From a virus: a stretch of 64,000 bases of DNA. Numbering within the stretch: the first letter of the stretch is position 1; every line of letters begins with the position of its first letter. The notes under the pieces are model-generated. The model searched no databases, was not told the DNA's origin, and worked only from the letters and a program-made list of their open reading frames with translations. Shown one piece after another: positions 1-58,189 of this stretch. The stretch lies in the IMG/VR virus record IMGVR_UViG_3300034019_000950, positions 1-64,000 of that record; one strand, written 5' to 3'. Made by a program: the position numbers and the translations under genes.

Positions 1-227
1 GGGCCGGGGGGGCGGGGTGGGCCGCCCCGCCTGCGGGGGGGGGCAGGGGGCAGGGGGGTGGGGGGTGGGGGCGGGGCGGGCGGCACCACCCCGGCACCAC
101 CCCCGCGCCACCCCTACAGCCGCCACAGGGGCGCTGCGCGGCCTGCGGCACGCTGCAAGGGGGTGCTGCAAAACGCCAACCCACAGGCCGTTGTTGAGAA
201 TTTTTAAGTTTTTTCCAGGCTGTTTGC

Positions 228-257
228 TTTACAGCCTAACCGCCCCCTTGTTACGCT
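228..257 (+). promoter_or_regulatory. early sigma70-like promoter with TAAC-N9-GTTA dyad
   Basis: TTTACA-18bp-TACGCT; TAAC 237-240, GTTA 250-253; same architecture recurs about 10 times upstream of + strand genes. Confidence 0.7.
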
Positions 258-342
258 GCTGGCATGCAGGGCAGGCACCGGGCCGGCCGGCATAGGGGGG
301 CAACCCCCACCACCACAGCAGCAGCAGCAGGGTACAACCACA

Positions 343-1023
343 ATGGCCACCACCACCACCACCCCCGTCGCCACCACCACCACCACCCCCGCCGCCGCCG
401 CCACGGGCAAGGGCAAGGGCAAGGGCAAGGGCACCACCACCCCGGCCGCCACCAAGGCCAAGGCCGCCCGCGCCGCCGCCGCCACCCCGGCCCCGGCCCC
501 GGTTGCCGCCACCCCGGCCCCGGCCCCTGTGGCGGCCCCGGCCCCGGTGGACAGCCTGTTCTCGGCCCTGGCCCAGCTGGACACCCCCCCGGCCGCCACC
601 ACCCCCGCCACCACCCCCGCCACCACCACCCCGGTCGAGCAGGGCGGGTGGGCCACGGCCGCCGACTGGTCCGCCGCCACGGCCGCCTGGGCGCTGCTGG
701 CGCAGGTGGAAAATTCCGTCGCCGCCGCCACGGCCGCCCCGGCCGCCCCGGCCGCCCCCAAGGCGGCCCGGTGGGCGCGCAACCCCGGCGCCGGCACGGT
801 GGGCCAGCTGGCCGCCCTTATTGCGGCGGCGGGGGGGGGTGACACTGTCGTTCTCGACGCAGCGCTGCTGGCGGCCCACAACATTGCTGCCACGTGGCTG
901 AAAAACACCCCCGCCTTTACCCAGGCCGACGGGGTCCGCAACGTGGCTGCCCTGCAGTGCGGCTACAAGGTTGCTGCGTTCAAGCGCGGTGTGGCTATCA
1001 CCCTGGTGCGCGTGGCTGCGTAG
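343..1023 (+). CDS. hypothetical protein, Ala/Thr/Pro/Lys low-complexity N-terminus and globular C-terminus
   Basis: 226 aa ORF directly downstream of the conserved promoter; GC3-biased codons; C-terminal half has normal amino-acid complexity. Confidence 0.7.
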   Translation: MATTTTTPVATTTTTPAAAATGKGKGKGKGTTTPAATKAKAARAAAATPAPAPVAATPAPAPVAAPAPVDSLFSALAQLDTPPAATTPATTPATTTPVEQGGWATAADWSAATAAWALLAQVENSVAAATAAPAAPAAPKAARWARNPGAGTVGQLAALIAAAGGGDTVVLDAALLAAHNIAATWLKNTPAFTQADGVRNVAALQCGYKVAAFKRGVAITLVRVAA

Positions 1024-1149
1024 CCGCTGCACGGGTGGGGGGCGGCACGTAGCGCCCCCCAGCCCACCCCCACCTGCCCGCCCACCTGCCCGCCCGCTGC
1101 CTGCCCGGCTGCGCGGCGGGCCGCGCCTTTTGGCCCTGCCCGGCCGGGC

Positions 1150-3751
1150 TGCGCGGGGCCGGTGCACGGGGGGTGCACGGGGGGTGCACGGGCCGGGGCG
1201 CCTGCGGGGGGCGCGGGGCGCGGGGCACGGTGGGCGCGCCCACCCCCTGCTGCGCGCCGGGGCACCGGGGCGGGGTGGGCACGGTGCGCGGGGTGGGCAC
1301 GGTGCGCGGTGCCGGTGCGCGGGGGCCACGTGCGGCACGTGCGGCACGTGCGGCACGGGGGGGGCACGGGGGGCACGTGCGGCACGGTGCGCGGGCTGGC
1401 GCGGTGCGGGGCGCACGCTGGCGGGGCCACGTGCGGCAAGGGCCGCCACAGGCACAACGGGCAGCCTGTGGCGTGCGGGCGCCCACCCCTACCGTGTACC
1501 GGGCAGGCTGCCCGTTGTGCCTGCTACGGGCTGCACGGGGGGTGCATACCAGGGAGCAACCCTTGCCGCACGGGCTACGGGGGGTGGTGCAAGCTGGGCA
1601 CGGTGCGGACGGTGCGGACGGTGCGGACGGGAGCACGAGAGGCACCGTCAGCACGTGCGGCACCGGGAGGGGCACGGTCAGCACGTGCGGCACGGTGGAC
1701 GCGGTGAGCACGGTGCGGACGTTGGAGACGGGCTGGTGCAGGGTGGACACGGTGAACACGGAGCACGAGACACGGGCTGGTGCAGGGTGGACACGGTGCA
1801 CGGTGGGCACGGGACACGAGACACGGTGGGCACGGTGCACGGCGGACACGGTGCACGGTGCACGGTGGACGGTGGACGCGGTGCACGATGGACACGGTGG
1901 ACACCGGGGACACGGTGGGCACGGCGGACACGGTGCAGACGGTGGGCAGGATGGACACGGTGCAGACGGTGGGCACGGTGAGCACCGGGGACACGGTGCA
2001 AGGTGCAGACGGCGGACGCGATGGACGCGGTGCGGACGGTGGACACGACGCGGACGGTGGGCAGGATGGACACGGTGGGCACCGGGGACAACGGAGGCAC
2101 CGGGGACACGGTGGGCACGGTGGGCACGGTGGGCACGGGACACGGTGCAAGGTGCAGACGGTGGGCACGGTGGGCACGGTGCAAGGTGCAGACGGTGGAC
2201 ACGATGCACGATGGACACGGTGGGCACGGTGGACACGAGACACGGTGGACGCGGTGCAAGGTGCGGACGGTGGGCACGGTGCGCACCGGGGACACGGTGC
2301 ACGATGGACGCGGTGCGGACGGTGGGCAGGATGGACGCGGTGCAAGGTGCGGACGGTGGGCACCGGGGACACGGTGGGCGCCAGGGGCACGGTCAACATG
2401 TGAGACGCGATGGACGCAGTGCGCGCGGGGTGGACGGTGGACACGGGGCACAGTGGACACGGGGTACGGTGGACGCGGTGCTGGATGGACGCGGTGTGGA
2501 GGGCAGACACGATGGACGCGGTGAGCACGAGACACGGTGGGCACGATGGGGACGGAGCACGGGGCACAGTGGACACGGGGTACGGGGCACAGTGCGGACG
2601 ATGGACACGGGGCACGGGGCACGGTGCGGGATGGACACGGTGCGGGATGGACGCGGTGTGGACACGGGGTACGGTGGACACGGGGTACGGTGGACACGGG
2701 GTACGGTGGACACGGGGTACGGTGCGGACGATGGACACGGGGCAGGATGGAGATGGTGAGGACGGTGAGGACCGTGTGGACCGGCTGATGCACGATGGAC
2801 ACGTGGCACGATGGACGCGGTGTGGACGGCAGACACGATGGACGCGGTGCGGGATGGACACGGTGGACGCGGTGCACGGTGGACGCGGTGTACGGTGTGG
2901 ACGGTGGACACGGGGCAGGATGGTGAGGACCGTGTGGACCGGCCGATACACGATGGACACGGGGCAGGATGGACAAGGGGCAGGATGGACAAGGGGCAGG
3001 ATGGACGCGGTGTAGACGGTGGACACGGGCTGATGCAGGGTGGGGACGTGCGGCACCGGAGGCACCGGAGACACGGTGCAAGCTGGACACGCTGCATGCA
3101 CGATGGACACGGTGCAAGCTGGACACGGTGCACGGGCCACGGTGGACACGGTCCAAGCTGGACACGGTGCATGCACGATGGACACGGTGCAAGGCGCACG
3201 ATCGACGCGGTGTGGATGGCGGACACGGGGCAGGATGGACACGGTGCACGGTGCGCACGGTCAGCACGTGCAGCACGATGGACACGGGGCAGGATGGACA
3301 CGGGACAGGATGGACGCGGTGTAGACGGTGTGGACGGTGGGCACGGTGCAAGCTGGGCACGTGCGGCACCGGAGACACGGTGCACGGTGGACACGGTGCA
3401 AGCTGGACACGGTGTATGATCAGCACGGTGCAAGGTGGACACGGTGCACGGTGGGCACGGTGGGCGCGTGCGGCACCGGGGACAACGGAGGCGCCGGGGG
3501 GGCATCGACTGTAAGGGGACCCGACGCGCCTTACTTCCTCCGATGCGCTGTTCGCCATCTCCGATGCGCGGGGTGTGCTCATGCGGATCGTGCGGCATCC
3601 GGCGCCGGCATCAGCGAGGGGCTGCGCCGCGCACCCTACCCGGCACCGTGCACCCTACCCGGCACCGTGCACCCCTTGCACCGTGCACCCTACCCGGCAC
3701 CGTGCACCCCTTGCACCGTGCACCCCTTGCACCCTACCCGGCCGGGCCGGT
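1150..3751. repeat. non-coding simple-repeat array of 7-9 bp units
   Basis: Shuffled units GGTGGACAC, GGTGGGCAC, GATGGACAC, GGTGCAC, GGTGCGGAC; G-rich top strand to ~3480, then an inverted C-rich block (GCACCGTGCACCCC) at 3630-3740. Confidence 0.9.
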
Positions 3752-3861
3752 GAGGGGGTGTGCTTCGCCTGTTGCGGGCCGGTCCTACACTTGCTCTCGC
3801 CGCAACAAGGGCGGCCCGGCGCATGTTTTAGGAAAATACAGTAAAAGTGTGCGGCTACAGG

Positions 3862-3891
3862 TTGCGCCCCTAACATGTGCCCGGTTACGCT
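3862..3891 (+). promoter_or_regulatory. early promoter with TAAC-N9-GTTA dyad
   Basis: TTGCGC-18bp-TACGCT; TAAC 3871-3874, GTTA 3884-3887. Confidence 0.7.
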
Positions 3892-3947
3892 GTAAGCAAC
3901 GGGGCACGGTGCTCCGCTAAGCAACCCATTCCGCTACAGGTACTGCA

Positions 3948-5243: not shown

Positions 5244-5313
5244 ACGTGCAGCACGTTGGCGCATCTTCCCTTGATGAACCAAACTTTTTTGCAAGTTAGG
5301 CTGCGCGCAACCC

Positions 5314-5343
5314 TTGCAACGGTAACCGCGCACATGTTACGCT
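5314..5343 (+). promoter_or_regulatory. early promoter with TAAC-N9-GTTA dyad
   Basis: TTGCAA-18bp-TACGCT with extended -10 TG; TAAC 5323-5326, GTTA 5336-5339. Confidence 0.75.
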
Positions 5344-5378
5344 TACAGTGCAACGGGCAACGCCCAAGGAGAGCAAAG

Positions 5379-6506
5379 GTGACCACCACCACCATTCACA
5401 ACGCGCACGCCGACCTCACCACCCTTCGCGTCCAGATGAAAAACGCGTTCGTCGCCCGCGACGCCGAGATTGACGGGCTGCTGCTCGCGCTGCTGGCCCG
5501 CACGCACGTTCTGCTGCTGGGGCCTCCCGGAACCGCCAAGTCCCTGGTGACGCAGGTGTTCGCCAGCGCCCTGGGCGGCGACTACTTCCAGCGCCTGCTG
5601 ACCGCCTTCACCGCGCCCGAGGAGCTGTTCGGCCCGTATGACCTCAGCGCCCTCGACGCGGGCCGCTACGAGCGCGCTGTGCAGGGCTACCTGCCGACTG
5701 CCACCGTGGCGTTCTGCGACGAGGTGTTCAAGGCCAACAGTGCGATCCTCAACAGCCTGCTCACCGTGCTGAACGAGCGCCAGTTCGACAACGGCACCAC
5801 CCGGATGCAGCTGCCTCTGGAGCTGTGCGTCGGCGCCAGCAACGAGTACCCCGAGGACGCCAGCTTGGAGGCGCTCTACGACCGCTTCACCCTGCGCTAC
5901 TGGACGCAGTACGTGCCCACCCGCGCCGGGCGGCTCGCGCTGCTGACCGCCGCCGACCCCGCGCAGGTGGTGACGGCCAAGCTGGCGCCCGACGCGGTGC
6001 AGGTGCTGCAGCAGGCCGTTCGTGACGTGGTGGTGCCTCAGAGCGTTCTTGTCCTGCTGTGTGACGTCGCGGACAAGCTGGCTCAGGACAACGGCGTGGT
6101 GGTGAGCGACCGTCGCCTGCGCGGAATGGTGCGGCTGCTGCAGGCCAGCGCCGTTCTGGACGGGCGCGTCACCGTCACCGCGCGCGACTTGCTCGTGCTC
6201 GCGGACAGCGTGTGGCACCGTCACGATCAGCGCCCCGCCGTGCTCGCCACGGTGCTGTCGGTCGCCGCCCCAAAGCTCGCGGCCGCAATGAAACTGTCCG
6301 ACAGCGCGCGCGAGATCTACGACGCGGTCAAGGACGTCAGCAGCGACGGTGCTCGCGCCCTGCAGCGCATCAAGGCCGTTGAGGCGGAGCTGGTCAACAT
6401 GGGTCTTGACGACACCGACGTTCTCAACGCACACCTGTCCGTCGTCGAGCTGCGCAAGGGGCTGGCGCGTCGCTTCATGTCTGCCAGCGGGCTGGGCAAC
6501 GTGTAG
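5379..6506 (+). CDS. MoxR/RavA-family AAA+ ATPase
   Basis: Walker A GPPGTAKS, FCDEVFKANSAILNSLL, ASNE, ALYDRF, SDRR; GTG start after AGGAG. Confidence 0.92.
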   Translation: MTTTTIHNAHADLTTLRVQMKNAFVARDAEIDGLLLALLARTHVLLLGPPGTAKSLVTQVFASALGGDYFQRLLTAFTAPEELFGPYDLSALDAGRYERAVQGYLPTATVAFCDEVFKANSAILNSLLTVLNERQFDNGTTRMQLPLELCVGASNEYPEDASLEALYDRFTLRYWTQYVPTRAGRLALLTAADPAQVVTAKLAPDAVQVLQQAVRDVVVPQSVLVLLCDVADKLAQDNGVVVSDRRLRGMVRLLQASAVLDGRVTVTARDLLVLADSVWHRHDQRPAVLATVLSVAAPKLAAAMKLSDSAREIYDAVKDVSSDGARALQRIKAVEAELVNMGLDDTDVLNAHLSVVELRKGLARRFMSASGLGNV

Positions 6507-6527
6507 TCCTCCGCACCGCTCTGTCTG

Positions 6528-6557
6528 CACCCCCGCATCACCCTGCGGGGGTGTTTT
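6528..6557 (+). terminator. intrinsic terminator
   Basis: CACCCCCGCA/TGCGGGGGTG 10-bp stem followed by TTTT. Confidence 0.75.
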
Positions 6558-6583
6558 CGTCCAAAAAACCTTGCTGGCACAGC

Positions 6584-6613
6584 TTGCACTGCTAACCGGG
6601 CGCATGTTAGGTG
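6584..6613 (+). promoter_or_regulatory. early promoter with TAAC-N9-GTTA dyad
   Basis: TTGCAC; TAAC 6593-6596, GTTA 6606-6609; followed by a GA-less SD-like AAGGGGGG. Confidence 0.7.
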
Positions 6614-6638
6614 TACCTTGCACCGCAAGGGGGGCACA

Positions 6639-8102
6639 ATGGCCAACTTCACCACCACGAAACACGTCAATGCCACGCGCGATGTCTCGCGCTGGGCCGA
6701 CTACCTGTTCACCAGCCGCGCGTCCGCCAGCGCAAGTCTGTCATCGGCTCGTCGTGAGCTCAGCTTCGCATACAAGGCGCAGGGCGGCGGCTCCGACGTT
6801 GAGGATCGTCGCCTTGACGATCTCGCCACTGCAACGGCTCGCGAGGTGTTCGCCGGCCTTTACGACGAGAGCGAGGCGACCGTTCTCGACAAGCCCGCGC
6901 CCGACACTGAGCTGGTCACCCGCGTCCACGGGCAGCTGCAGCAGCTGCCCGAGTATGCTCAGCTGCAGGGGCAGGTTGCCGGCGATCCTGACCTCGCCGC
7001 TATCGCCACGGCTCGCCTTCTTTCCTCTGTTGCGGCTGCGCTGCCCAAAATGGCAAGTGAGGAACGGAAAAAGGCCCAGCAGGAAGCCAGCGGTGCACCT
7101 GTTCGCGGCCCGGCCGCCGACGCTGACGGCGTGCTTCGTCGCATGTTGCGCACGGCCTGCAATGACGCAGCGCAGGCTGCCGCCGAGGCGGCGGAAGGCA
7201 TGGAAGGGCTGGCCCCCGGCCTTGGCGAAGCTCCCGCTCAACATGCGCAACATGACGACGGCCGCATCAAGCTTGCGGAGCGTGTCAGCTCCGACGCGCG
7301 CCTGCGTCGGGTGATGAAGCTGGCGGGCCGCCTGCGCCGCCTTGCCAGCGACGGGCGCAAGGTGCGCGACGAGCTGGGCGCGGACACGCTGGTCGGCACG
7401 ACCATCGGCGGCGACCTTCCGCGCGCCCTGCCCACTGAGCTCGGCCTTTTGCGTCACGCTCGCCTGCGTCGCGTGCAGCTTGCCAAGCTGGCCGATCGCC
7501 GCCTGCAGCAGTATCACGTGGTCGGCAATATCCCCAAAGGTCGCGGTCCCATCATCGTTCTGCTTGACGAGTCCGGCAGCATGGAAGGGGATCGTAACCT
7601 GTGGGCTGCGGCCGTCGCGCTCGCCTGTATCGGCACCGCAGCCCGCGAGCGCCGCGCCTGCACGGTCATTGGATTCAATGGGTCGGTTCGCTACATCGTC
7701 CGCCTTGACACTCACGGCAAGGCGTGGCGTCACGACACCAGCAACGTCGCCAACGCGACTGCAATGGGCGCTTGTGCGGATCTCGCCCTGCACGTGGCCA
7801 GCAGCCGCCCCGATGGCGGCACGCAGTTCGCGCCACCCCTGCAGGCCGCACTGGATCTTGAGGACGGCGTGACCCGCGAGCGTGCCGACCTCGTGCTGGT
7901 CACCGACGGCCATGCCGAGGCGCCGGTTGACATTTTGCAGCGGCTGCAGCAAGCGAAACACGACGGGCTGCGTGTTTTCGGCCTGACTGTCGGTGGCGGG
8001 AGCCTTGGCGCTGCGGTGCGCAAGATCGCAGACCATATCGTTGACCTCGACGACGCAGCGGGGCGCAACGACGGCAAGGAAGTCGCCGGCGCCATTCCGT
8101 AG
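6639..8102 (+). CDS. vWA domain protein (ViaA-like partner of the AAA ATPase)
   Basis: MIDAS DESGSM, GGT and LVTDG; GPII-LLD motif; adjacent to RavA-like ATPase. Confidence 0.9.
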   Translation: MANFTTTKHVNATRDVSRWADYLFTSRASASASLSSARRELSFAYKAQGGGSDVEDRRLDDLATATAREVFAGLYDESEATVLDKPAPDTELVTRVHGQLQQLPEYAQLQGQVAGDPDLAAIATARLLSSVAAALPKMASEERKKAQQEASGAPVRGPAADADGVLRRMLRTACNDAAQAAAEAAEGMEGLAPGLGEAPAQHAQHDDGRIKLAERVSSDARLRRVMKLAGRLRRLASDGRKVRDELGADTLVGTTIGGDLPRALPTELGLLRHARLRRVQLAKLADRRLQQYHVVGNIPKGRGPIIVLLDESGSMEGDRNLWAAAVALACIGTAARERRACTVIGFNGSVRYIVRLDTHGKAWRHDTSNVANATAMGACADLALHVASSRPDGGTQFAPPLQAALDLEDGVTRERADLVLVTDGHAEAPVDILQRLQQAKHDGLRVFGLTVGGGSLGAAVRKIADHIVDLDDAAGRNDGKEVAGAIP

Positions 8103-10381: not shown

Positions 10382-10624
10382 GAAGTCGTCTTTTTGACGA
10401 TTTGTGTATGTATAGGGGTGGTGGACGGGCTGCTACAAGGCCCGTGCGGGGGCTATGGGGCGCTGCTGGCCCATAGGGCGGGCTGCAGGCCCTGCAAGCC
10501 GGTATGCAGGCCACAAGGGGGCATATTGCGCACCGTTTAGGGCCTGCGGGGGCCTGCGGGGGCCTGCTTACCCCATACAACAGCGCGTATGGGTTAGGGG
10601 GTGGATGAAAATGGTGAGGTAGAC

Positions 10625-11332
10625 GTGCGTTTCCTGCTGAGTGGTGGTTCTGGACGTCTTGGAAGGCTCTTTGTGCCGTGGTTGGAACAACAGGGCCACG
10701 AAGCATTCGCTCCTTCACGTGCTGCCTTGGATTGGTCGTGTCCAGATAGTGTGATGGCCGCCGTCACCGCCCAAAAACCCGACCGCATCGTGATGCTGGC
10801 GGCATGGACGGACGTGAGCGGAGCACAGGCACAGCCAGCCGCCTGCGTGCGGGACACGGTGCTGACAACACAGCATGCAATCGCCGCCGCGAAAGCCAAC
10901 AGTGTCTCGTTACTGTACGTGAGCACTGACTACGTGCACGCAGTTCTCCGACAGGACACGGCTGGCGTTTATGCAGCTGCAAAGCTCGTCGCAGAGCAGA
11001 TGGTTCTACTTGCGAACGGACACGTGGCCCGCGTTGCCTTCACCACCCCGGAACAAGTGGCTGAGTGGAGATGGGTCAACGACTACAGCAAGGCCAACAG
11101 GTGCTGGGTTGAGGATCTGATCCCAATGCTCGGCCTCTGGGCGTCCTTTCCAACTCACCAGCTACAACAGCTGGTGAACCTGGGTGGCCCACACCCTGTC
11201 ACGCCTGCGGAGCTTCTGGCAAGCCGCCATCCTGATCATCCAGCACTGAGGCGCGTGATTGCTTCGCAAGCGGAAGCAATCGCAATCGGTCTGCCAGCAC
11301 AGCCTCACGATACTTGTTGGAGGAAACTATAA
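10625..11332 (+). CDS. rmlD: dTDP-4-dehydrorhamnose reductase-like SDR
   Basis: GGSGRLG, AAWTDV, STDYV, YAAAK. Confidence 0.8.
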   Translation: MRFLLSGGSGRLGRLFVPWLEQQGHEAFAPSRAALDWSCPDSVMAAVTAQKPDRIVMLAAWTDVSGAQAQPAACVRDTVLTTQHAIAAAKANSVSLLYVSTDYVHAVLRQDTAGVYAAAKLVAEQMVLLANGHVARVAFTTPEQVAEWRWVNDYSKANRCWVEDLIPMLGLWASFPTHQLQQLVNLGGPHPVTPAELLASRHPDHPALRRVIASQAEAIAIGLPAQPHDTCWRKL

Positions 11333-11350
11333 AATATGCTGGCGCCCCCC

Positions 11351-11381
11351 TTGCACAGCTAACCCGCACCGCGTTACACCT
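11351..11381 (+). promoter_or_regulatory. early promoter with TAAC-N9-GTTA dyad
   Basis: TTGCAC; TAAC 11360-11363, GTTA 11373-11376. Confidence 0.7.
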
Positions 11382-11421
11382 ATGGTGCAAGCAACGCGGC
11401 AGCAGCCGCAAGGGAGAGTAG

Positions 11422-12271: not shown

Positions 12272-12301
12272 TTGACTTTGTAACTTGCGAAAGGTTACAC
12301 T
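12272..12301 (+). promoter_or_regulatory. sigma70-like promoter with TAAC-N9-GTTA dyad (contains GA, unlike the others)
   Basis: TTGACT-18bp-TACACT; TAAC 12281-12284, GTTA 12294-12297. Confidence 0.7.
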
Positions 12302-12344: not shown

Positions 12345-12767
12345 GTGAGCAAAAACACTGATCTGGTCGTGTTGAGGCACCCTGTCCTTGTCATCGCGCA
12401 AGTGCTGCAAGCTTGCGCACGACTGCAAGATCTGGCTGGATGGTGGGCGCCCGTTGGATCTCTCTTAGAGGGCGCACGACTGGCGCTTGTCGGCCTTGAC
12501 GGGCTGGATGAAGTGCAGATGCGTCGCCTTTTGCGCTGGGCAGCACGATGGGAAGCAATGGATCCTCGATTGCGAGCTTTGTATGCTCAACATCAGTCCG
12601 CCATTGCTGTTGATGTTGCGCTGTGGCACGTGCTTGACCAGCGAAGCGGACAGCCGAGCGGGGTTGTGTACGGGAAGCTACGCGACCTGTGGGTGAAGGT
12701 ATACGGATACTCACCAAGCATTGAGCTGGTCCCTACAATCACCCTAAACATCAAGGACCAACCGTGA
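12345..12767 (+). CDS. hypothetical protein
   Basis: GTG after GGAG; coupled to rmlC. Confidence 0.55.
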   Translation: MSKNTDLVVLRHPVLVIAQVLQACARLQDLAGWWAPVGSLLEGARLALVGLDGLDEVQMRRLLRWAARWEAMDPRLRALYAQHQSAIAVDVALWHVLDQRSGQPSGVVYGKLRDLWVKVYGYSPSIELVPTITLNIKDQP

Positions 12768-13405
12768 CAACCGACGAGCAAGACATTCACTTGATGTATC
12801 AAGACGCCGGCTACCTGCGCTGGGCCAGCGTTCCGCAGCAGGTGCAGCCGCCGTCTTTCCGCACGCTGGGCGGAACCGAGCCGTGGCACGCTCGTCCAAT
12901 CGAGGTGCGCCCGCTACGCTGGCACGTGGATGCGCGGGGCGCCTTGGTGGAGCTGCATCGCACAAGCTGGCACCGAGAGCGTCTGCCGGGCGAGGTGCAG
13001 CTGCCGCGTCGTGGCGAAGTGGCACAGATCTACGTCAGCACCACAGCCGAGGGTGTAGTCAAGGGCTGGCACCTGCACGCGCAGCAGTCCGATCGCTTCA
13101 CGGTGCTGCGCGGCGCCGTGCTGCTGGCCCTGTACGACTTGCGCGCTCACAATCGCGCCAGCCGGCTTGGTGATGAACTGCCGCCGGTACATGAAGTGAT
13201 GCTTCATGCAGAGCGCAATGCTGCTCAGGTCATTGTTCCCCCCGGCTGGGCGCATGGATGGATGGCACTGCCCGGCTACGGTGAGGCGCACGTGCTGAAC
13301 GCCGTTTCGCACGAGTATGACGGAACCGACGAGTGGCGACGCAATGCACACGCTGGTCCGGCCACGGGCAAAGACTATGACTGGCGTCGTTCTCGTGATG
13401 GATAG
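12764..13405 (+). CDS. rmlC: dTDP-4-dehydrorhamnose 3,5-epimerase
   Basis: DARGALVE, GVVKGWHLH, PPGWAHG cupin motifs. Confidence 0.85.
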   Translation: MTTDEQDIHLMYQDAGYLRWASVPQQVQPPSFRTLGGTEPWHARPIEVRPLRWHVDARGALVELHRTSWHRERLPGEVQLPRRGEVAQIYVSTTAEGVVKGWHLHAQQSDRFTVLRGAVLLALYDLRAHNRASRLGDELPPVHEVMLHAERNAAQVIVPPGWAHGWMALPGYGEAHVLNAVSHEYDGTDEWRRNAHAGPATGKDYDWRRSRDG

Positions 13406-13436
13406 TGTTTTTTGGTTGTGGTTATGGGTGGCGCGC

Positions 13437-13457
13437 TACCCGTTGCGGTGTTATACT
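13437..13457 (+). promoter_or_regulatory. promoter variant TACC-N9-GTTATACT
   Basis: Extended -10 TGTTATACT upstream of the sigma gene. Confidence 0.6.
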
Positions 13458-13497
13458 GCAATGGTCAGCAACAGCGGCATAGCCGCACGGAGGCCAC

Positions 13498-14833: not shown

Positions 14834-14837
14834 CCCA

Positions 14838-14866
14838 TTGCACTGTAACCCTGCACATGTTACCGT
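14838..14866 (+). promoter_or_regulatory. early promoter with GTAAC-N9-GTTAC dyad
   Basis: TTGCAC-17bp-TACCGT; TAAC 14846-14849, GTTA 14859-14862. Confidence 0.75.
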
Positions 14867-14889
14867 AAACATGTAAGCAGGAGCAGCAC

Positions 14890-16867: not shown

Positions 16868-17056
16868 GATCGTGAAGGGTCCGTGGTGGCAGCCGTAGGC
16901 GCGTGGTGGCGTTTACGGCAACCTGTTTGTAGCCCGCAGGTGTGCTAAACGCACCCCCTGCGCCTAAAACGGGTCAGGGGCCGGCTGCGCATCTCCCTGC
17001 GCTGCTGACACTGTGCTCCTTGCTGTACGCAGCCGGCCCCCTTTCCCACCACGACA

Positions 17057-20856: not shown

Positions 20857-20892
20857 TGACAACAGACAACAGGCAAAAGTGAGGGTACAACA

Positions 20893-45460: not shown

Positions 45461-48400
45461 TTAGAACTTGCCACGGTCGAAGCCGACGTGCACGCCCGCC
45501 CGCAGTGTAGTGCGTCGAAGCTCACGCTGCAGCCTCGGTGCCTCTCCACGCTGGCCAGCCGTAAACAGCACCTCGTCCAAAGTGCGCCCGTTTGCCTGCA
45601 CCACCACCTGCACCCGTTGGCCGCCCATGCCCCCACCACCACCGCCGGCAGCGCCTTGCATAGCCGTGGCGGCCTGTAGCATGGCACTGGCAAGGCCAGC
45701 CGCCGCAGGCACCTCCACCTCGCCGGGCAGGTAACCACGCGCGGCGGGCGCCAGCCCGTTGGCAAGCTGACCACGCATTGCATCGAGAGCCTGCTGGAGC
45801 AGATCTGCCGGACGCTGGGCGGCGATGATGTAGTCGCCGGGTGCAAACCGGGCAGCCATGCCCTCAGCGCCCGCCTTCACCGCTCCGGGCGTGTCCCCGA
45901 ACGTGGCAGTTTCTGCCTTGCCAAGCGTGAAAATCTCGGCCAGCACGTCGCGGAAGAACTGCACCAGCTTCTGCAAGCCAAGGACGATGGCCTCACCGAT
46001 GCCCCGTGCAAGGTAGCCGAGTGCCTGCCCGATGGCCAACAGCAGCCCGACCGTGACCTCATACAGAATGACAGGCAAAGCCTTGATAAAGGCAGGCACG
46101 AACTGCGTGATGAACGCAACGATGAAGGTGGGGATCAGGTTGATGACTGCAGTGACAATCTGCGGTAGCGCGCGTGCAATACCAAGGATGATCGCGGGGA
46201 TCAGGCGCACGACGGCAACAATCAGGTCAGGCAGCATGATGATGATGGCCGCAATCAGGCGCGGCAGCATGGCGATGATGCCAACCACGATGTCAGTCGT
46301 AGCCATCAGCAGGTTTTCGATGATGGATGGCAGCTGGCGAACCAGCTCCAAGATCAACATCGTAGCCGCCTGCATCAAGCCAGCGACGATAGCCGGCAGC
46401 ATATCAACCACCGCCAGCACCAACCGGGGCACCTCTGCAATCAGCATGGCCACGAGTTGAAGCGCGCCGGCTGTCAATGCCTGGATGATGCGTGGAAGCT
46501 CCAGCACGACGGCGCCAACGACACCGATCGCTGCATCAACAAGCGCCGGCACCAGCGCCTGCAACACCTGCATCAAGGCTTGCACCAGCTGCGGCAACGC
46601 GCGCGCCACGGCGCCGACAAGCACCGGAACCAAGTCCACCACGGCCAGCACGGCTCGTAACAGTGAAGGCAGGGCAGCTTGCAGGGACGCCACCAGCTGA
46701 TCCACGATCAGCGGCAAGTCCTCAATCAGTGCCTGGACCAGCAGCACCACGCTATCGGCCAGGGCGCCGATGATGGCAGGAAGCTCAGCAATGATGGCAG
46801 ACGCGAGCTGACCAGCCGCCTGCGCAAGTGTTGACGCAAGCATGGGAAGGGCGTCTGCGAACTGCTGCAGCAGCGACGGCAGCTGATTGGCCAGCGCCTC
46901 CAACGCTGCGGGCGCCGCCTCTACGAAAGTGGCCAGCAGCTCGCTTGCGCCATTCACAAGCTCGGTGACGTATGCTTCTGCACCAGCCACTGCAGTCATG
47001 GGCAGTGCGGCCAGCTTTTCCTCATACTCGTCAACCGAGATCTCACCAGCGGCCAGCTGCTCTTGCAGGGCTGCTACTTCCTCCATCCCCTTCTTGGCTT
47101 TCTCCATTGCGTCTGAAAGGCTGAAACTGAAGCCAGTCAGCTCCTCAAAGAGCGTCAACACGCCCATCGCGGCCTTGCCGATGCCGATGCCGATTGCACG
47201 CGCAACATCAACCGCAGCGGCCCGCACATTCTCCATCACCTGCTTGGCCACATCACCGAATGTATCAACGCCTTCCTCCGCTTTTGCCAGCGCGTCGGCA
47301 ATCGCGGCGTTGTAGTAGGCAATGACTGCCTCACGCTCTGCCAGCTGATCCTCTGCCAGCCGTGAAAGCAGTTGGTCACGCTCCTTCTCCAGCTCATAGA
47401 CCCGCCGGTAGTCACCCGCCGTCAGCATACGCACTTCCTCTGACAGTGCGCGCTTTTGGTTCAGCACTCGCTGGTCATACACAGCGTTGATCTCGGCAAC
47501 CTGACGCCCGGTCGCGTTTGCGCTCTCTACCAGCGTGCGCAAACGCTCCAGCTCGATGCGCTGCAGCTCGTTCATCTGCGCTTCTGCATCAGAAAGCTGC
47601 AGCTGCTCAATGATCTGATTGATGCGTGTGTAGGTGTCACGCACACGCTGTTGCGCCTCTGCCGCCTCCACTTCTTCGAGCTTTGTACGTGCCTGCATGA
47701 AGCGCAGCAGCACGTCAAGCCGTTCCGTTGCGCCACGCTCGTAAAGCGCCAGCTCTTGCTCAAACTCCAGTCGCAGCGCCTCGCGTCGGGTGTTGATGCG
47801 AGACTGAAGCTCAAACGCTTCCCGGTCTGCTTCATCCCTGCCAGCGGCTGCCAACGCCTCACGGAGCTGTTTCAGTACCGCTTCTTGTTCTTCCTGCTGC
47901 TGGCGCGCCGCGTCGGCACGCACGACGGCCACAATCCGGGCGCGTTCCAGCTCTGCCGCACGGATCTTGTCCGTCTGCTTGCCATAGGCCAACACCTCGG
48001 CATCAAACAGACGATTGAGTTCTTCCAGCTGCAAGCGAAGCTCAATCGCCGCCTGCTCGCTCGCCTTTGCGCGTCGTCTGGCGATGTCGTCCTCGGCCTT
48101 CTGAACCGCGCGCACCCGCGCCTCATAGGCCCGTCGCCATTCCTCCGACGCGTCTCGTGCCTGACGTGCGGATTGCTCGTCAACATCGCCCATCATGGCC
48201 GTCTTTTTGGCGGCCAGCTCTGCTGCAATCTCCTTCTTTGCCAGCGCCTGCGCCGCAAGCTCAGCACCCTGCGCAAGCCCTTCTATCTTCGCTTGCGCAT
48301 CCTTGACCTGTTGGCCCAGGTCCTCCTGCCGCTTGCGCACTTCCTCAACCGTTGCGCCGAACGTCGAAAGAACGCCCTTGTAGGCGACAGTTTCGTTGCC

Positions 48401-52336: not shown

Positions 52337-52523
52337 TCTGCACCCCCAGCCGCACAGTGCGGCCACACGCGTCACAGCACAGGGCCGTATCGGTGCCATC
52401 CCCACGGGCACGCGCGGCCGTAATGGGGGCGGGTAGCGTTGCCAGCGTGGCCCCACAGGCGCACCGCAGCCGCAAGGCTGGCCCCGCCGGGGCATTGCTG
52501 GCCTGCCAATCATGCGTCCTCAT
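52320..52523 (-). CDS. small zinc-ribbon protein
   Basis: RCACG..LA ... CDACG; AGGAG RBS. Confidence 0.5.
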   Translation of the reverse strand: MRTHDWQASNAPAGPALRLRCACGATLATLPAPITAARARGDGTDTALCCDACGRTVRLGVQNGSQR

Positions 52524-52957: not shown

Positions 52958-53492
52958 TGGGTCCTCCACTACCGAAACGGATGCCAGCCTGGGTGCGTAG
53001 CTCGGCACCCATCACCAGCACAAATGCACGCAGCAATGCTGGTCGCAAAGCCGGATCGCTTACCGTCCACCACAACACGTCACGCCCCTGCATGACGCGC
53101 GTTCCTTCCACAACCCACGGAGCGTGGGTTGGAACCTGCACCATCCAGCCGACTAAGTAGTATGGGCGTGAACCGCCACCACCACCAGCACGAAACTTCA
53201 GAAGGCCCTGCAGCCGTGCGGCCATCAGGCCAGTGCGCTCATGGACGACGTGCGGCTGACTGGGATGAATGTTGATTGAGCCATGACGCTTTGCGTATGG
53301 GTGATCCATGCGGCGCAGCTGCGCAAGGCTGTGGTCATTGCGTGTAAGGTTGGCATATACCGCCGTCATCGCGACTCCACCAACCTTGGTCAATGCCCTG
53401 CCAGCCGCCGCACGGATGAACTTGTCTTTCAGATCACGGAGGTTGATGACCGTTGCCTCGATCCCAACCACACGTGTCTTGTCACGTGGCAT
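52947..53492 (-). CDS. HK97 gp10-like neck protein
   Basis: Basic; RTG.M, APWVVEGTRVM..R motif. Confidence 0.65.
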   Translation of the reverse strand: MPRDKTRVVGIEATVINLRDLKDKFIRAAAGRALTKVGGVAMTAVYANLTRNDHSLAQLRRMDHPYAKRHGSINIHPSQPHVVHERTGLMAARLQGLLKFRAGGGGGSRPYYLVGWMVQVPTHAPWVVEGTRVMQGRDVLWWTVSDPALRPALLRAFVLVMGAELRTQAGIRFGSGGPNVP

Positions 53493-56310
53493 CCTTGCCG
53501 CCCTCACCAACAGTATGCGGCGAGGTCAATGCCGCGTCCAGTGCATCCAGCAAGCTGTGCAGATCCACACCATCCGGCACCGCCGTCCGGCCCGCGCCCA
53601 ACACGGGCTGGTCAGGCGCGTGCTCGCGCAGCCACCCGTGCATTGCTTCGACCTGCGGCATCAGTGTGTGTGCGGGCGCGAGCCTTCGCTGAGCCTCACC
53701 AACAAGCAGGCGAGCGGCCCGTAGATGGTAAAGCGCCGCCTCACGGAAAGGCAGGTAGCCGGTGCCCGCGCAGCGCATTGCGGCTTCGTAGCACTCCCAC
53801 TGCTCGGCACGTCGCCCGTCGTTGCCGTATTGCAAGCCCAGGCTCACCCACGCGCCAGGGCTTGCCGGCTCGTCGGCAATCTGCTTGACCAACAGGCGCG
53901 TGTACCTTTCCAGCTTCCCCTGCATCGCATCGGGTCCGCCGGCCAGCCCACGGTGATCAACCGTAAAGGGCGCATAGCGCACCTGCGGGTGGATGCCGCG
54001 CCGACCCAGCTCGGCCATGCCGCGCTCCAAAGTCTCATGGACGCGGAAGTTGAAGCGGAGGATGCCACCGGCAAGCCGGAACAGCCGAGTATTCTCAGAC
54101 CAGTTCCACTGCCCGTCTGCTCGCCAGTTGCGGAAGCGGAACATCCACGCCCAGCTGTCCGTGACCTCAACCATGCGGCGCAGCGCCACCGTGGCCAGGA
54201 ACGTGCTCTCGTATTGCTCGTCCGGGTCCATCACAAGGCACCACGCGCATCCGTGCGCGCGCAGCCGGTCCACGCCCGCGTTCCGCGCCGTGCCCAGGTC
54301 GTCGTTCAGCGGCTGGTACACCCATTCGGCGCCGTAGCGCGCTGCCACGTACTGCACGTCGGCGCTGGGCGCGGTGCCCTCCGGGCCAGTCCACACCAGC
54401 ACCACATGATCGGCAAGTGCGTAGACGCTGTCGAGGTGACGATGCAGGTCGAACAGCTGCTCGCCAGCGTGCCACAGCATCGTAAAGCCGATGCCGTTGT
54501 CGGGCTGCCACGGGGCCAGCTGCATCCCTTCCTCTCTCACGAGGTGGTCGTACCCGCCACCGCCACTGGTGCGGCCTTGCGTGAGCACACTGTCAGGCTG
54601 CGCGTCCTTCTCGCGGTAGAAACGGAACTTGCGCAGCCGGTCGGCGTGGCGCAGGTAGCCATAGTGACGGAACCGCAGCGCCGCCACGCGCTTGGCGTTC
54701 TCGCCCGCGTCGGGCACGTTGCCGCAGTGCAGGCCGATGGCGTTGCCCGCCTGCACCTGCTGCACGCTCGGGTGCGTCACGCGCCACAGGCGGAACCCGC
54801 GCATCGAGCTGCGGTAGTCGGGGCCGCACCAGGGCACGTCCACGCGGCACAGGCGCGGGCTGTCCCAGTGGTTCGCCCAGCCCACGTCGTAGTGCGTGAC
54901 CAGCGGGTCAGGGTGTCGCATCCACTTCTGCAAAAGCTCGCGGTCAACGCGTTCCTCCACCACCTCATCGTGGTCCACCGACATCATCCAGTCGGGGGCC
55001 AGCTGCAGGCCCAGGCGGATCGCCGCGTTGCGCTCGTCGCGCTCGTTCCACTCGCCAGCCCACCCGCGCACCAGCACGGGAACCTCGCGCCCTGCACTGG
55101 CTTGCGCGAGATCGAAGGCGTACCGCTGCAGCGCATCGGCCTGTGCGTCCAGCGTGGCGCCCTGGCACGCATCCAACAGCGCCTGCTCGGCGGGCGGCAT
55201 CATGCCAGCCTGCCACTCCGGGCTGGCCAGCACGTCGGCGGGATTGCCGGTAAGCAGGATGGCCATGCCGTTCACCAGCTGCGCCGTGCGCCCCAAGCTC
55301 GCGCGCAGCATGGCAAGGTCGTTCGGCACGTGCAGCTTGACGCGCCACACCGCAACCAGCCGCTGCTCTCGGCTGGTGTACGCTTCCCAGGTGCGCAGGT
55401 ACGTCGGCAGGTTGGCCAGCCCGCGCTGCGCCTCGGGGAACACGCTGTCCAGCGTCTGGTGCCCCAGGTGGTGCACGTAGCAGTTCGTCGCGATGGCCAT
55501 GCGCCAGCCCAGCAGCTGCGCGCGCGCCGCGATGTCGTTGTCGTCGTACCCGCCCACGCCGTACTGCGGGCGCACAAGGCACACGCGACCCTCGTGCTGC
55601 TCCAGCAGCTGCAGCAGGCACTCGCGGTCATACAGCACGCACAGCCCGGACAGGAAGCTGGCCGCCATCGGGGTCCACCCGTTCTGCTCCGCGTAGCTGC
55701 CGGCGAACTGGTCCAGCATAGTGTCGGCGTCGGCGGTGAAGGCGCTGCCGGTGGGCAGCTTCACGTCGGGCGCGCGCACCTGCTGCATCCCCGCCACCAC
55801 GTTGGACACGGGGCCGACCATGCCGATCCGACCGTACCCGGCGACCGGGTGCGCAGGCGCCTGTAGGCCGTAGCCGGCCACCTCGCCCTGCAGCTTGATG
55901 TCGGGGCTGGTGAGCGCGCCGTGCAGCCGGTGCAGCCAGCTCGGCGTCACGCGCACGTCGTCGTTCATCACCACCACCGTAGGCGGAAGGCCACCGTGCT
56001 GCAGCGCGGCCTGGACGCCAGCGTTCACCGCGCCCGTCCAGCCGACAGGGCCGGGTAGCTGCACCCACTGCAGCTCCACCTGCTGCGGGCTGGTCGCGTT
56101 CGCCAGCTGCACCAGCGCCGACACCTGCTGGTGCAGCGCCTCGATGGTTCCGTCCTCCATCGCCTGCGGCAGCGGATTCACCACCAGCATCAGGCGCCAG
56201 CGATCAACCTGTGTGCAGCTGACCAGCCGCTGAACGCACGGCAGCACGAGGTCGGGGCGGCCCATCGTGGGCACGATGATGATGGCGTTGTTGGCGTCGT
56301 CGTGGTTCAT
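53482..56310 (-). CDS. multi-domain GT2 glycosyltransferase with C-terminal TPR-like region
   Basis: Three GT-A-like modules (NAG..MNDD..YDDND; RN...VDHDE..HYGY; ARNAG...MDPDE..VHE..H.G). Confidence 0.85.
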   Translation of the reverse strand: MNHDDANNAIIIVPTMGRPDLVLPCVQRLVSCTQVDRWRLMLVVNPLPQAMEDGTIEALHQQVSALVQLANATSPQQVELQWVQLPGPVGWTGAVNAGVQAALQHGGLPPTVVVMNDDVRVTPSWLHRLHGALTSPDIKLQGEVAGYGLQAPAHPVAGYGRIGMVGPVSNVVAGMQQVRAPDVKLPTGSAFTADADTMLDQFAGSYAEQNGWTPMAASFLSGLCVLYDRECLLQLLEQHEGRVCLVRPQYGVGGYDDNDIAARAQLLGWRMAIATNCYVHHLGHQTLDSVFPEAQRGLANLPTYLRTWEAYTSREQRLVAVWRVKLHVPNDLAMLRASLGRTAQLVNGMAILLTGNPADVLASPEWQAGMMPPAEQALLDACQGATLDAQADALQRYAFDLAQASAGREVPVLVRGWAGEWNERDERNAAIRLGLQLAPDWMMSVDHDEVVEERVDRELLQKWMRHPDPLVTHYDVGWANHWDSPRLCRVDVPWCGPDYRSSMRGFRLWRVTHPSVQQVQAGNAIGLHCGNVPDAGENAKRVAALRFRHYGYLRHADRLRKFRFYREKDAQPDSVLTQGRTSGGGGYDHLVREEGMQLAPWQPDNGIGFTMLWHAGEQLFDLHRHLDSVYALADHVVLVWTGPEGTAPSADVQYVAARYGAEWVYQPLNDDLGTARNAGVDRLRAHGCAWCLVMDPDEQYESTFLATVALRRMVEVTDSWAWMFRFRNWRADGQWNWSENTRLFRLAGGILRFNFRVHETLERGMAELGRRGIHPQVRYAPFTVDHRGLAGGPDAMQGKLERYTRLLVKQIADEPASPGAWVSLGLQYGNDGRRAEQWECYEAAMRCAGTGYLPFREAALYHLRAARLLVGEAQRRLAPAHTLMPQVEAMHGWLREHAPDQPVLGAGRTAVPDGVDLHSLLDALDAALTSPHTVGEGGKDAT

Positions 56311-56382
56311 GCTGGCTCCCCGCCTCCTGGGCGTGTGTGGGTGCACAGCGTATCTCACATCAGCCGGATTGTGAACGGCTGA

Positions 56383-57015
56383 TCACTTAGGACCGTAACG
56401 GTCTGCCCGGCAGTGCCAGTGATGCGGCCGGAAACCGAAGCCAACGCGGATCTCTCGCACACCACCTACAAGCCACTGGTCGCCAGTGTCATCTTCGATG
56501 AAGAAGTCCTGCGCGCTCGGTGCCCAAGTTTCCTCATAGTCAATAAGGAAGATTGCCGCATCTTCCTCCTTTGTGCCCTGATTGTAGACGGGCACCTTGA
56601 TCCAGCCTGACCATCCAAGCACTGCGGGCTTGCTTTCCGCCACGGTCACGAGCATGAACTGTGGCGTACCGTCCGCGCTCACTGCCTGCACGGAAACCGT
56701 TGGAATAACTGCTTCATTCGCAAGCCCTGTGGTCACCACACTTGTCAACGTCGCAAAACGCTTGGTAGAAACCTGAGTTCCGTTTGCTGCAAACGTCAGC
56801 GTTTCTGACTGTGAAGCACCACCCGGCGCTGTACCGACCAGCTGCACGGTTCCACTTCCAGTCGTTCCGTTTGCTACCGTGACCTGTAAGAACGCCTGAC
56901 CGAGCAAAGCGCGTGTCGGGGTCATGTTGGCCGCAGCTGGCGAAGCAACGAGAGCGAAAGCAGTCTTTCGCTGTACGGTGATGTAACGATTGGCACTGCT
57001 GCTAACCGTGCTCAC
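56383..57015 (-). CDS. putative head-closure/structural protein
   Basis: GTGA coupling; position after head-tail connector; C-terminal HH. Confidence 0.5.
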   Translation of the reverse strand: MSTVSSSANRYITVQRKTAFALVASPAAANMTPTRALLGQAFLQVTVANGTTGSGTVQLVGTAPGGASQSETLTFAANGTQVSTKRFATLTSVVTTGLANEAVIPTVSVQAVSADGTPQFMLVTVAESKPAVLGWSGWIKVPVYNQGTKEEDAAIFLIDYEETWAPSAQDFFIEDDTGDQWLVGGVREIRVGFGFRPHHWHCRADRYGPK

Positions 57016-57521
57016 GCCCGCACACCCCAAACGAAAGTGTCCAACCCGTTGCGCTCCAGTCGGCCATGCAGGCTCGACCACTCGCACTCTTTCCGCAAGA
57101 CTTCCAGCATCTCGTCAGGATCACGCCCACCGTAGTATCCCGGCGTTGGACTATCCTCCAGATGATGCTCGGGGCGCGCCCGGCTCGCGCAGCTGAACGC
57201 CAGCAGGCCGCCCGGCCGCAGGTGCGCCGCCGCCGCCTGCAGGGTCTGCTGCCAGAACGGGTCGTGCTCCAGCATCTCCGTGGATACCACCACGTCCACG
57301 GGGCCGCCCTCGGGCGGGTGCTCGTGGGCGATGCCCACCACGTCCACGCCAGCGCCCGCATAAGCGTCGATGCCCAGGTAGTACGACGGGGCCGGGAACA
57401 GCCGGCGCGGGCTGCCGTTGATGTCGCGGCTGCCGTATTCCAGCACCCGCGCGCCCGGCGCGAACAGTGCGGGATGCGCAAGGCGCAGCCCCTGCAGCCA
57501 ATCCATCACGGTGCTGTGCAT
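57012..57521 (-). CDS. class I SAM-dependent methyltransferase
   Basis: VLEYGS.DING, GID...G.GVDVV, EMLEHD, LRPGG. Confidence 0.85.
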   Translation of the reverse strand: MHSTVMDWLQGLRLAHPALFAPGARVLEYGSRDINGSPRRLFPAPSYYLGIDAYAGAGVDVVGIAHEHPPEGGPVDVVVSTEMLEHDPFWQQTLQAAAAHLRPGGLLAFSCASRARPEHHLEDSPTPGYYGGRDPDEMLEVLRKECEWSSLHGRLERNGLDTFVWGVRA

Positions 57522-57523
57522 AA

Positions 57524-58189
57524 TCAATCCTCGTCCTGCTCGGCCTGTTCTTCACTGGTGTCGCTGTCGCTGGCCAAGTTGTCAGCCATCAACTCAGGCG
57601 GCACCAGTATCTCGTCAGGTGGTGCCGGCAGCTGGGCGGACACGTCGGGCGCTACAGGCGCCAAAGGCGCGCCGGGGTGCGCCGCAGCCTCCGGGGCAGC
57701 CGCCCCTACCCCCGGCACCGCCGCAGCGCCCTGGTGGGCGCTTACGGGCCGCATCAGGGTGGGTACTGGTTGCCAACCGCCCGGCCCATAAGCCTGCACC
57801 GCAACCTGGGCAGCATCCGACACCACCACTCTCAAGGCTGCGCTACCCACATCAACCACATGCACTTCGTGGTGCGAAGTAAGCGACTGAGCGGCATCCC
57901 GTACCGCCGGGGCATCGCCATACACCAACAACACCACCGCCGCACGCAGGTCGCCCACCGCCAGCGCGCGCAAAAGGTAGGGTTGTGCGCCTGCTAACAG
58001 GCTGGCGCGCCCCACCTGCGCCCGGTAGCCGTGCCGGGCTGCAACCGCCCTACCGCGCCCCACGGCCGGTAACGGGGCACCGCCGGGCTGGTCGGTAAAC
58101 AACACGTGCCGCGCATAGTGCAGGCCCGGCTGAGCAAGTGGAAGCAGGTCCAGGGAAGGCACAATGCCCACCACATCAGTTTGGCTCAC
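57524..58189 (-). CDS. hypothetical protein
   Basis: GGAGG RBS; coupled to rmlB. Confidence 0.55.
   Translation of the reverse strand: MSQTDVVGIVPSLDLLPLAQPGLHYARHVLFTDQPGGAPLPAVGRGRAVAARHGYRAQVGRASLLAGAQPYLLRALAVGDLRAAVVLLVYGDAPAVRDAAQSLTSHHEVHVVDVGSAALRVVVSDAAQVAVQAYGPGGWQPVPTLMRPVSAHQGAAAVPGVGAAAPEAAAHPGAPLAPVAPDVSAQLPAPPDEILVPPELMADNLASDSDTSEEQAEQDED

Follow-up and report, generated by a model that had tools for sequence, protein, structure and literature searches.

Islands free of GA and TC in the genome of a lake-water phage as a possible footprint of context-specific DNA modification

The DNA considered here is a window of 64,000 nucleotides with 64% G+C, the first 64 kb of the 79,355-bp IMG/VR virus record IMGVR_UViG_3300034019_000950, which CheckV rates as complete; the phage represented by this genome is referred to as G000. 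Two features of the window are in question (Table 1). One is a series of discrete islands in which the dinucleotide GA and its complement TC are both absent. The other is a cassette of six genes at 27022-31999, encoding a ParB-like protein, a TET/JBP dioxygenase, a kinase, a sulfotransferase-like protein, a pentein and an amino-acid:DNA transferase, each joined to the next by stop/start overlaps. The gene map is built from open reading frame (ORF) calls, several of the short ones being uncertain. An initial annotation had tied the two features together, proposing that the cassette modifies a pyrimidine in 5'-TC-3' and that selection has removed this target wherever host proteins must read incoming virion DNA.

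The islands themselves are real. All 15 of the stretches first described as lacking GA and TC contain 0 GA and 0 TC by count, and the true runs exceed the earlier bounds by 1-2 bp. Run lengths from position 3901 to the end of the genome, clear of the repetitive left end, were compared with a geometric expectation and with 200 dinucleotide-preserving shuffles in 2-kb blocks; within genes, synonymous codons were permuted inside each gene. Elsewhere GA/TC had been estimated by eye to recur roughly every 10 bp, and a count puts the average distance at 10.2 bp. GA/TC-free runs of at least 60, 90 and 130 bp number 33, 15 and 8, against geometric expectations of 14.3, 0.63 and 0.010, which bears out the proposal that runs above 130 bp should essentially not arise by chance. 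The block shuffles yield on average 0.67 runs of at least 90 bp, with a maximum of 3.

The effect is specific to this dinucleotide, as none of the nine other strand-symmetric classes is comparable to GA/TC under the null model. Runs of at least 90 bp do not occur at all for AG/CT, CG, AC/GT, CA/TG, GC or CC/GG, even though AG/CT and CG resemble GA/TC in frequency, and AA/TT shows a small excess only (40 against 26). Within the islands AG, CT, AC, GT and TA are present, at 0.73-1.61 times their expected frequency, AA/TT is mildly enriched (observed/expected, o/e, 1.3) and the G+C content is 68%, compared with 63% in the rest of the genome. Genome-wide, GA and TC are ordinary (o/e 0.85) and the avoidance is therefore local. 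Indeed, preferred codons hold TC, as ATC makes up 72% of the isoleucine codons and TTC 71% of the phenylalanine codons. The genome-wide word depletion by which restriction-site avoidance is recognized is not seen, as the depletion of GA/TC is confined to windows.

Several islands lie within genes. Under the synonymous-codon permutation, 4 coding runs of at least 120 bp are observed against 0.02 expected, and 5 of at least 90 bp against 0.3. This rejection implies that it is the DNA itself, in both its strands, that is under selection, and that composition does not account for the avoidance. For the long coding islands, the probability given the amino acid sequence and the codon usage of the genome is ~1e-4 to 4e-4 each. 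The avoidance is strand-symmetric, as a duplex-level target would predict, and variable sequence within the islands is just as free of GA/TC as the conserved motifs.

Beyond 3.6 kb, the islands are mostly intergenic and cover a promoter and its 5' leader. The early promoters share the dyad TAAC-N9-GTTA, which occurs in 10 copies in the genome and at no other spacing from 7 to 11. The claim that islands sit on almost every early promoter holds for eight of these ten, which lie in GA/TC-free windows of 55-154 bp. A typical window consists of an A/T-rich upstream element, a -35 element, the dyad over the spacer and extended -10 element, and a leader of 20-40 nucleotides (nt). The -35 element of island promoters is TTGCA or TTGCG rather than TTGACA. 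The boundaries are sharp: islands stop at the first functionally required GA, either the GGAG of a Shine-Dalgarno (SD) sequence (AAGG/AG, CAGG/AGG or GTTGG/AGG, the slash marking the boundary) or the point where coding begins. Three islands have an SD without GA (AAGGGGGG) and continue through the ATG. Only one member of the early family, the promoter at 12281-12297, lies outside the islands, and it might act as a modification-sensitive switch. A second promoter class (GTGCGGGTTAGTG...TGCCTACTA) is common to the island at 18518-18610 (+) and to genome positions 78425-78527 (-). The longer intergenic islands at 10425-10604, 32376-32551, 35830-35995 and genome 73577-73783 contain iterons. Scans of the window for Rfam families and tRNAs found nothing, and thus the long islands are not known RNAs.

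Table 1. Islands, repeats, promoters and cassette genes in the 64-kb window (a slash within a motif marks the island boundary; SD, Shine-Dalgarno; aa, amino acids; P, probability of no GA/TC given the amino acid sequence)
Feature	Position	Strand	Remarks
GA/TC-free island, G-rich low-complexity contig start	1-196		82% G+C repeat DNA; weak independent evidence
Two GA/TC-free runs, 215-368 and 369-550	215-550	+	TAAC-N9-GTTA promoter at 237
556-bp GA/TC-free block	999-1554		Several different CACGGTG-type repeat units
Strand-asymmetric array of ~9-nt units (CACGGTGGA)	1555-3480	+	175 GA vs 7 TC on the + strand; 92 GGAC
GA/TC-free block of GCACCGTGCACCC repeats	3617-3752		Reverse-complement vocabulary of array 1555-3480
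Early promoter island	3833-3913	+	A-rich upstream element, GA-less -35, TAAC-N9-GTTA dyad, leader
Early promoter island	5277-5369	+	Stops at AAGG/AG (SD)
Early promoter island, GA-less SD (AAGGGGGG)	6561-6649	+	Continues through ATG
180-bp intergenic island	10425-10604	+	GGGCCTGCGGG x3 iterons; stops at start codon region
Early promoter island	11324-11414	+	Stops at AAGGG/AG
Dyad promoter, exception	12281-12297	+	Canonical TTGACT -35; GA/TC in and around; outside any island
Short intergenic island	13402-13465	+	T-rich start, TATACT -10-like element
Early promoter island	14813-14881	+	Stops at GCAGG/AG
Two adjacent runs (62 + 66 bp, one GA between)	16049-16176	+	Terminator-like; stop at ATG
Intergenic island upstream of helicase gene	16881-16974	+	
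Second promoter class (GTGCGGGTTAGTG..TGCCTACTA)	18518-18610	+	Stops at CAGG/AGG
Coding island, primase-helicase linker (aa 121-171)	22935-23088	+	P ~1e-4
Early promoter island	24679-24755	+	
Coding island, last 46 codons of gene 26626-27006	26864-27005	+	P ~4e-4; stops at ParB gene SD
ParB-like protein (ParB_N)	27022-27762	+	Stop/start overlap with TET gene
TET/JBP 2-oxoglutarate-Fe(II) dioxygenase	27750-28655	+	Tet_JBP, PF12851, E 8e-25, residues 127-280
P-loop kinase	28502-29179 (ORF limits)	+	AAA_33, Ploopntkinase3 matches
Sulfotransferase-like protein	29176-30219	+	Weak: Sulfotransfer_3, E 0.04; RSGSS loop
Pentein (arginine deiminase/amidinotransferase fold)	30213-31046	+	C-terminal match only
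Amino-acid:DNA transferase (ADDT / aGPT-Pplase)	31031-31999	+	ADDT, 1.6e-17
Early promoter island, GA-less SD	32003-32057	+	Stops just past ATG
176-bp intergenic island	32376-32551	+	GCGCRYAGGGGC iterons, TACAAT-like -10; stops 8 nt before ATG
166-bp island	35830-35995		Junction of convergent early (+) and late (-) modules
Coding island near 3' end of tape-measure gene	45577-45714	-	P ~4e-4
Late-region island	52400-52510	-	Stops at ATG
Coding islands in gene 57524-58189: 57691-57816 (one GA/TC inside), 57952-58092	57691-58092	-	P ~1e-4 to 3e-4

The left end of the window requires separate treatment. Positions 1-1554 are G+C-rich low-complexity repeat DNA, and the four left-end islands are therefore weaker independent evidence than those beyond 3.6 kb. 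The runs at 215-550 also span the low-complexity N-terminus of the first gene (343-1023), whose product of 226 residues is rich in alanine, threonine, proline and lysine; its G+C fraction at third codon positions is 0.91 and its N-terminal half is GA/TC-free. The array at 1555-3480 is non-coding, 1.9 kb in length, and consists of ~200 units, most of which read GTGTCC on the bottom strand. It is bordered by the GA/TC-free blocks 999-1554 and 3617-3752, which are built from the same vocabulary. The word ACGGTGGAC occurs there in 20 exact copies, compared with 3 or fewer in relatives; the array as such is absent from relatives, and Logan assemblies break at it.

The initial annotation had recognized a TET/JBP-kinase-ADDT cluster, and domain matches to ParB_N, Tet_JBP, a Ploopntkinase3-like kinase and ADDT establish its presence. 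The TET/JBP protein has 844 homologues at E <= 1e-10, and its H..D motif plus a later H are invariant in 33 homologues. The kinase probably starts near 28652. Relatives of the sulfotransferase-like protein were sought with exact peptide patterns; none appeared directly and one surfaced through the ADDT search. Beyond the window, between terS and terL, are genes for a TET-associated glycosyltransferase (TAGT) and for a methyltransferase-like protein, here called the DPPY protein, with an FxGxG-like ELCAGTA motif and a DPPY motif. Its only Pfam match, 14 residues long, is to D12 (E 0.07), and no PHROG or PDB match was found. No match to the C5-methyltransferase family PF00145 exists in the complete 79,355-bp genome, while control genomes do match, and thus thymine rather than 5-methylcytosine is the likely TET substrate.

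Published work on related enzymes provides a context for this cassette. Phage thymine dioxygenases act after replication and in a context-selective manner: 5mYOX97 prefers NTC, whereas the ParB-dependent 5mYOX176 prefers NTG, then NTA, and ParB-dependent enzymes co-occur with kinases and amino-acid:DNA transferases (PMC13229309). In phages M6, ViI and phiW-14, resistant restriction sites point to thymine hypermodification at TG/TC (PMC6449724), and dapT is located at TG (PMC13458397). Phage DpdA enzymes target GA, strictly so in phage iggy, with dPreQ0 at ~97% of its GA sites (PMC10484667). A word search of these texts, PMC13229309 and PMC10484667 included, returned no mention of target-free promoter islands.

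Against this background, the islands are best read as windows free of a TC/GA-specific DNA modification, most likely of T in 5'-TC-3' through the TET/JBP enzyme, a reading that we consider moderately probable. T in 5'-TC-3' would be oxidized after replication to 5-hydroxymethyluracil (5hmU) by the ParB-dependent dioxygenase. The kinase, the amino-acid:DNA transferase, the pentein, the sulfotransferase-like protein and/or TAGT would then convert 5hmU into a bulky adduct. Selection would purge GA and TC wherever the duplex must stay unmodified on both strands for protein binding or melting. The cleared sites would comprise promoters together with the upstream elements and 5' leaders that belong to them, intergenic regions that bear iterons, and a small number of positions inside genes that may be internal promoters or an origin. 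We infer the modification itself, its context, the modified base and the block to protein binding alike. The cassette, the missing C5-methyltransferase, the published TC/TG preferences and the promoter position of the islands speak for the proposed modification of T in 5'-TC-3', whereas TET carriers without islands speak against it. Two comparisons described below also favor a GA/TC-targeted modification: phage iggy, with mapped dPreQ0 at GA and an excess of GA/TC-free runs, and the sister genome G005, whose different cassette goes with leakier islands. The further proposal that the islands serve incoming virion DNA as read by host proteins would be an additional supposition, and islands occur in the late region too. 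An avoidance that is symmetric, local and absolute, and that overrides both the promoter consensus and synonymous codon choice, is most simply explained by an agent that recognizes one dinucleotide in the duplex and does harm in regulatory DNA. To our knowledge, the only such agent with a precedent is context-specific base modification. Characterized relatives of the pathway encoded by G000 do distinguish between bases on the 3' side of T.

A considerable body of comparative evidence weighs against this account. Eighty TET-encoding viral loci were fetched, and the ~55 of them long enough for the test show no islands of any dinucleotide; the sole exception among tested TET loci is the fragmentary relative L007, with a mild GA/TC excess. 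The closest TET-bearing relative, the syntenic L002 (TET 78% and primase 82% identical; gene order ParB-TET-TAGT-APH-HAD), has no islands, and GA/TC in its primase linker is near its genome average (5 in 130 nt, or 13 in 219 nt with short flanks). G001, a complete genome of 79.2 kb and 42% G+C, has both the six-gene cassette of G000 (33-45% identity) and its replication module, yet lacks islands for any dinucleotide. The T-hypermodified phages M6, phiW-14, PaMx11 and SH-Ab 15599 likewise have no dinucleotide-free islands. The only characterized ParB-dependent enzyme prefers TG, not TC, and the data behind the modification reading are assembled contigs. Furthermore, 6-bp palindromes that contain GA/TC are not spared relative to those without (o/e 0.20 against 0.10, p=0.9); this equal avoidance gives no sign that sites containing GA/TC are shielded from restriction.

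Another of these comparisons is with G005, a complete sister genome of 74.9 kb with terminal repeats and 70-94% protein identity genome-wide. It encodes no TET, kinase, ADDT or TAGT, and keeps weaker islands at places orthologous to those of G000. GA/TC-free runs of at least 90 bp number 14 against 6.7 in shuffles (maximum 13), about a two-fold excess. The orthologues of 20 G000 islands hold 38 GA/TC in 1,624 nt (0.023/nt) compared with 0.060/nt in their flanks and zero in G000; the orthologue of the tape-measure island at 45577-45714 has 2 GA/TC against 10 expected. In the G005 cassette an orthologous ParB (72% identical) precedes QueE-FolE-QueD-QueC and a protein with a DSGAF motif that is a probable DpdA, an alternative modification system with GA as its known target in other phages. 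The two cassettes appear as a swap behind the shared ParB at the same locus (G000 27022-31999; G005, L101, 11116-15175), and both plausibly address the GA/TC step. Another difference between the sister genomes is the inversion of the early/replication module relative to the late module (G000 4000-36000; G005 8300-34700), such that the two modules converge in G000 and run in the same direction in G005.

The proposed comparison of relatives with and without the cluster therefore had a mixed outcome: the islands of G005 are weaker, in keeping with the proposal, but islands persist without TET and are lacking in most TET carriers. Persistence of islands in relatives devoid of modification genes had been held to speak against the proposal, and G005 comes close to this situation, being TET-less with islands kept, but it carries a DpdA system. 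Its two-fold excess without TET implies that the footprint may predate the TET cassette or depend on something common to both phages. Two histories fit: the constraint is strict under the cassette of G000 and relaxed in G005, or the footprint first formed under a deazaguanine system directed at GA and became tighter once the cassette had been exchanged for one that acts on the paired TC. Given the many negative comparisons, neither TET nor even the exact cassette predicts islands, and the link to T in TC is accordingly one that we infer.

These observations lend some weight to an alternative in which the modification is GA/TC-specific but is not TET-made at T in TC. It could be an inherited, still maintained footprint of GA-specific 7-deazaguanine or the work of another enzyme common to the clade, for example the DPPY protein acting on A in GA; we regard this as unlikely. 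The Que genes and probable DpdA directly behind the orthologous ParB of G005, with weaker islands at the same places, favor it, as does phage iggy, for which a strict GA motif of a DpdA has been published (PMC10484667). Iggy (MN029011) has 12 GA/TC-free runs of at least 80 bp against 3.1 (maximum 6), the longest measuring 171, 161, 157 and 152 bp. Loci of note lie at 59949-60628, 27694-27854, 39300-39456 and 42700-42870. Its right-end early control region is GA/TC-poor, with a promoter (TTGCGC-N17-TACAAT) whose -35 is GA-less. Iggy thus shows that a proven GA-targeted modification can accompany the same kind of footprint. Other GA-modified phages, which again count against the modification account, are less obliging: CAjan (dPreQ0 at GA and GGC) has a marginal island signal and 9g (7-deazaguanine, archaeosine) has none. 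In G000, no tblastn match to the G005 QueC/D/E, FolE or DpdA-like proteins was found, and its perfect islands must therefore be maintained by something that G000 itself encodes.

The DPPY protein has a suggestive distribution, being present in G000, G005 and L007, all with some excess, and absent from island-free G001 and from the examined part of the L002 record. The comparison relies on tiny samples confounded by phylogeny, however, and the family assignment is weak. As the protein is found in both G000 and G005, it cannot explain perfect as opposed to leaky islands. Moreover, N6-methyladenine rarely blocks promoters, and we know of no GA-specific adenine methyltransferase.

Equally improbable in our judgment is that the islands have no link to modification and reflect a regulatory or structural grammar of the clade (binding arrays for a phage or host protein, avoidance of TC-containing primase or nuclease sites, easy melting) or a local mutational bias such as TC-directed deamination where single strands are exposed. 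That the islands are clade-specific rather than cassette-specific, lie where DNA is melted or bound, and are mildly enriched in AA/TT would suit such a grammar. Their higher G+C content, the cleanness of variable parts and motifs alike, and the sharp boundaries at the first functionally required GA do not, and we know of no protein that requires 60-200 bp without one dinucleotide on both strands. Deamination of TC to TT was rejected as a cause on composition: decay of TC to TT and GA to AA predicts an enrichment of lysine, asparagine and phenylalanine, which is not seen in the coding islands. A primase-site (GTC) reading was rejected because all TC/GA are missing, not only GTC/GAC.

Lastly, an artefact of chance or composition in a G+C-rich genome with biased codon usage is exceedingly improbable and, for islands beyond 3.6 kb, effectively refuted: the left 1.5 kb is of low complexity, some coding islands fall in alanine/proline/glycine-rich linkers and 70% G+C relatives have longer runs from composition alone, but local dinucleotide shuffles, geometric expectation and synonymous-codon shuffles all reject it, and for GA/TC only.

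The footprint itself appears undescribed, although several known systems resemble it in part. The 5mYOX clade C1 (O'Toole et al., PNAS 2026, PMC13229309) likewise has ParB beside TET/JBP, a P-loop kinase and an amino-acid:DNA transferase with no C5-methyltransferase. No genomic footprint is reported there, however, the sulfotransferase-like and pentein genes of G000 are extra, and the NTC preference belongs to a ParB-independent enzyme, the characterized ParB-dependent one being NTG. Iggy (PMC10484667) shares the dinucleotide step and the excess of GA/TC-free runs, but its 7-deazaguanine is inserted by DpdA and its signal is roughly 4-fold compared with roughly 22-fold in G000. M6, ViI, phiW-14 and SH-Ab 15599 (PMC6449724, PMC8989533, PMC13458397) share kinase and transferase chemistry on 5hmU and the TG/TC preference, although their 5hmU comes from the nucleotide pool and not from TET. 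Vertebrate CpG islands are also promoter-associated windows set by one dinucleotide and the absence of DNA modification, but inverted: CpG islands keep the unmethylated target while mutation erodes CpG elsewhere in the genome, whereas in G000 the target is missing from the islands and retained everywhere else. Restriction-site avoidance is alike in that selection removes short words, but it acts genome-wide and on whole sites, whereas in G000 the dinucleotide is normal overall and absent only in discrete windows. Palindrome avoidance is itself extreme in G000. In the window (1-64000) and the whole genome, CTAG occurs 0 times against ~111-138 expected, TTAA once, AATT twice and GANTC 23 times. 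Most 6-bp palindromes are missing (median o/e 0.10-0.20), and likewise in G005 and L002.

Other genes of the window are of interest in their own right. Early genes at 5256-8102 encode a MoxR-type AAA+ ATPase (bpMoxR, 1e-59) followed by a VWA-domain protein, and RmlD-like and dTDP-sugar (deoxythymidine diphosphate sugar) isomerase-like genes lie at 10601-11332 and 12764-13405. A glycosylation set among the head-tail genes (53482-59256) consists of a 958-residue GT2-family protein, an S-adenosylmethionine-dependent methyltransferase (57012-57527) and an NAD-dependent sugar dehydratase/epimerase (58186-59256).

The phage was found in at least 20 lake-water DNA sequencing runs from 2020-2024, at 99-100% of sampled words, and no RNA run was among the listed runs containing it. 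Contigs covering 16001-36000 from four runs (2020-2024) are identical, with zero variants. The phage is a persistent clonal population that recurs in one lake system. No GenBank phage matched 40 kb of the window in a megablast search.

Taken together, it is quite possible, though we put it forward tentatively, that the genome encodes the complement of its own modification map, such that specificity and regulatory sites could be read from raw sequence, and that one ParB locus swaps T-oxidizing and G-replacing cassettes aimed at the same step. If so, the context specificity of phage hypermodifications would become predictable from sequence, where today liquid chromatography-mass spectrometry and kinetic sequencing are needed. 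Bulky adducts would be incompatible with promoter recognition or melting, which bears on how heavily modified phages are transcribed by host polymerase, and for an uncultured phage the islands would at once show where promoters, leaders and candidate origins lie. Comparison of the sister phages further suggests that one ParB-like protein may serve either of two interchangeable base-modifying enzymes, TET or DpdA, which would bear on the role of these ParBs.

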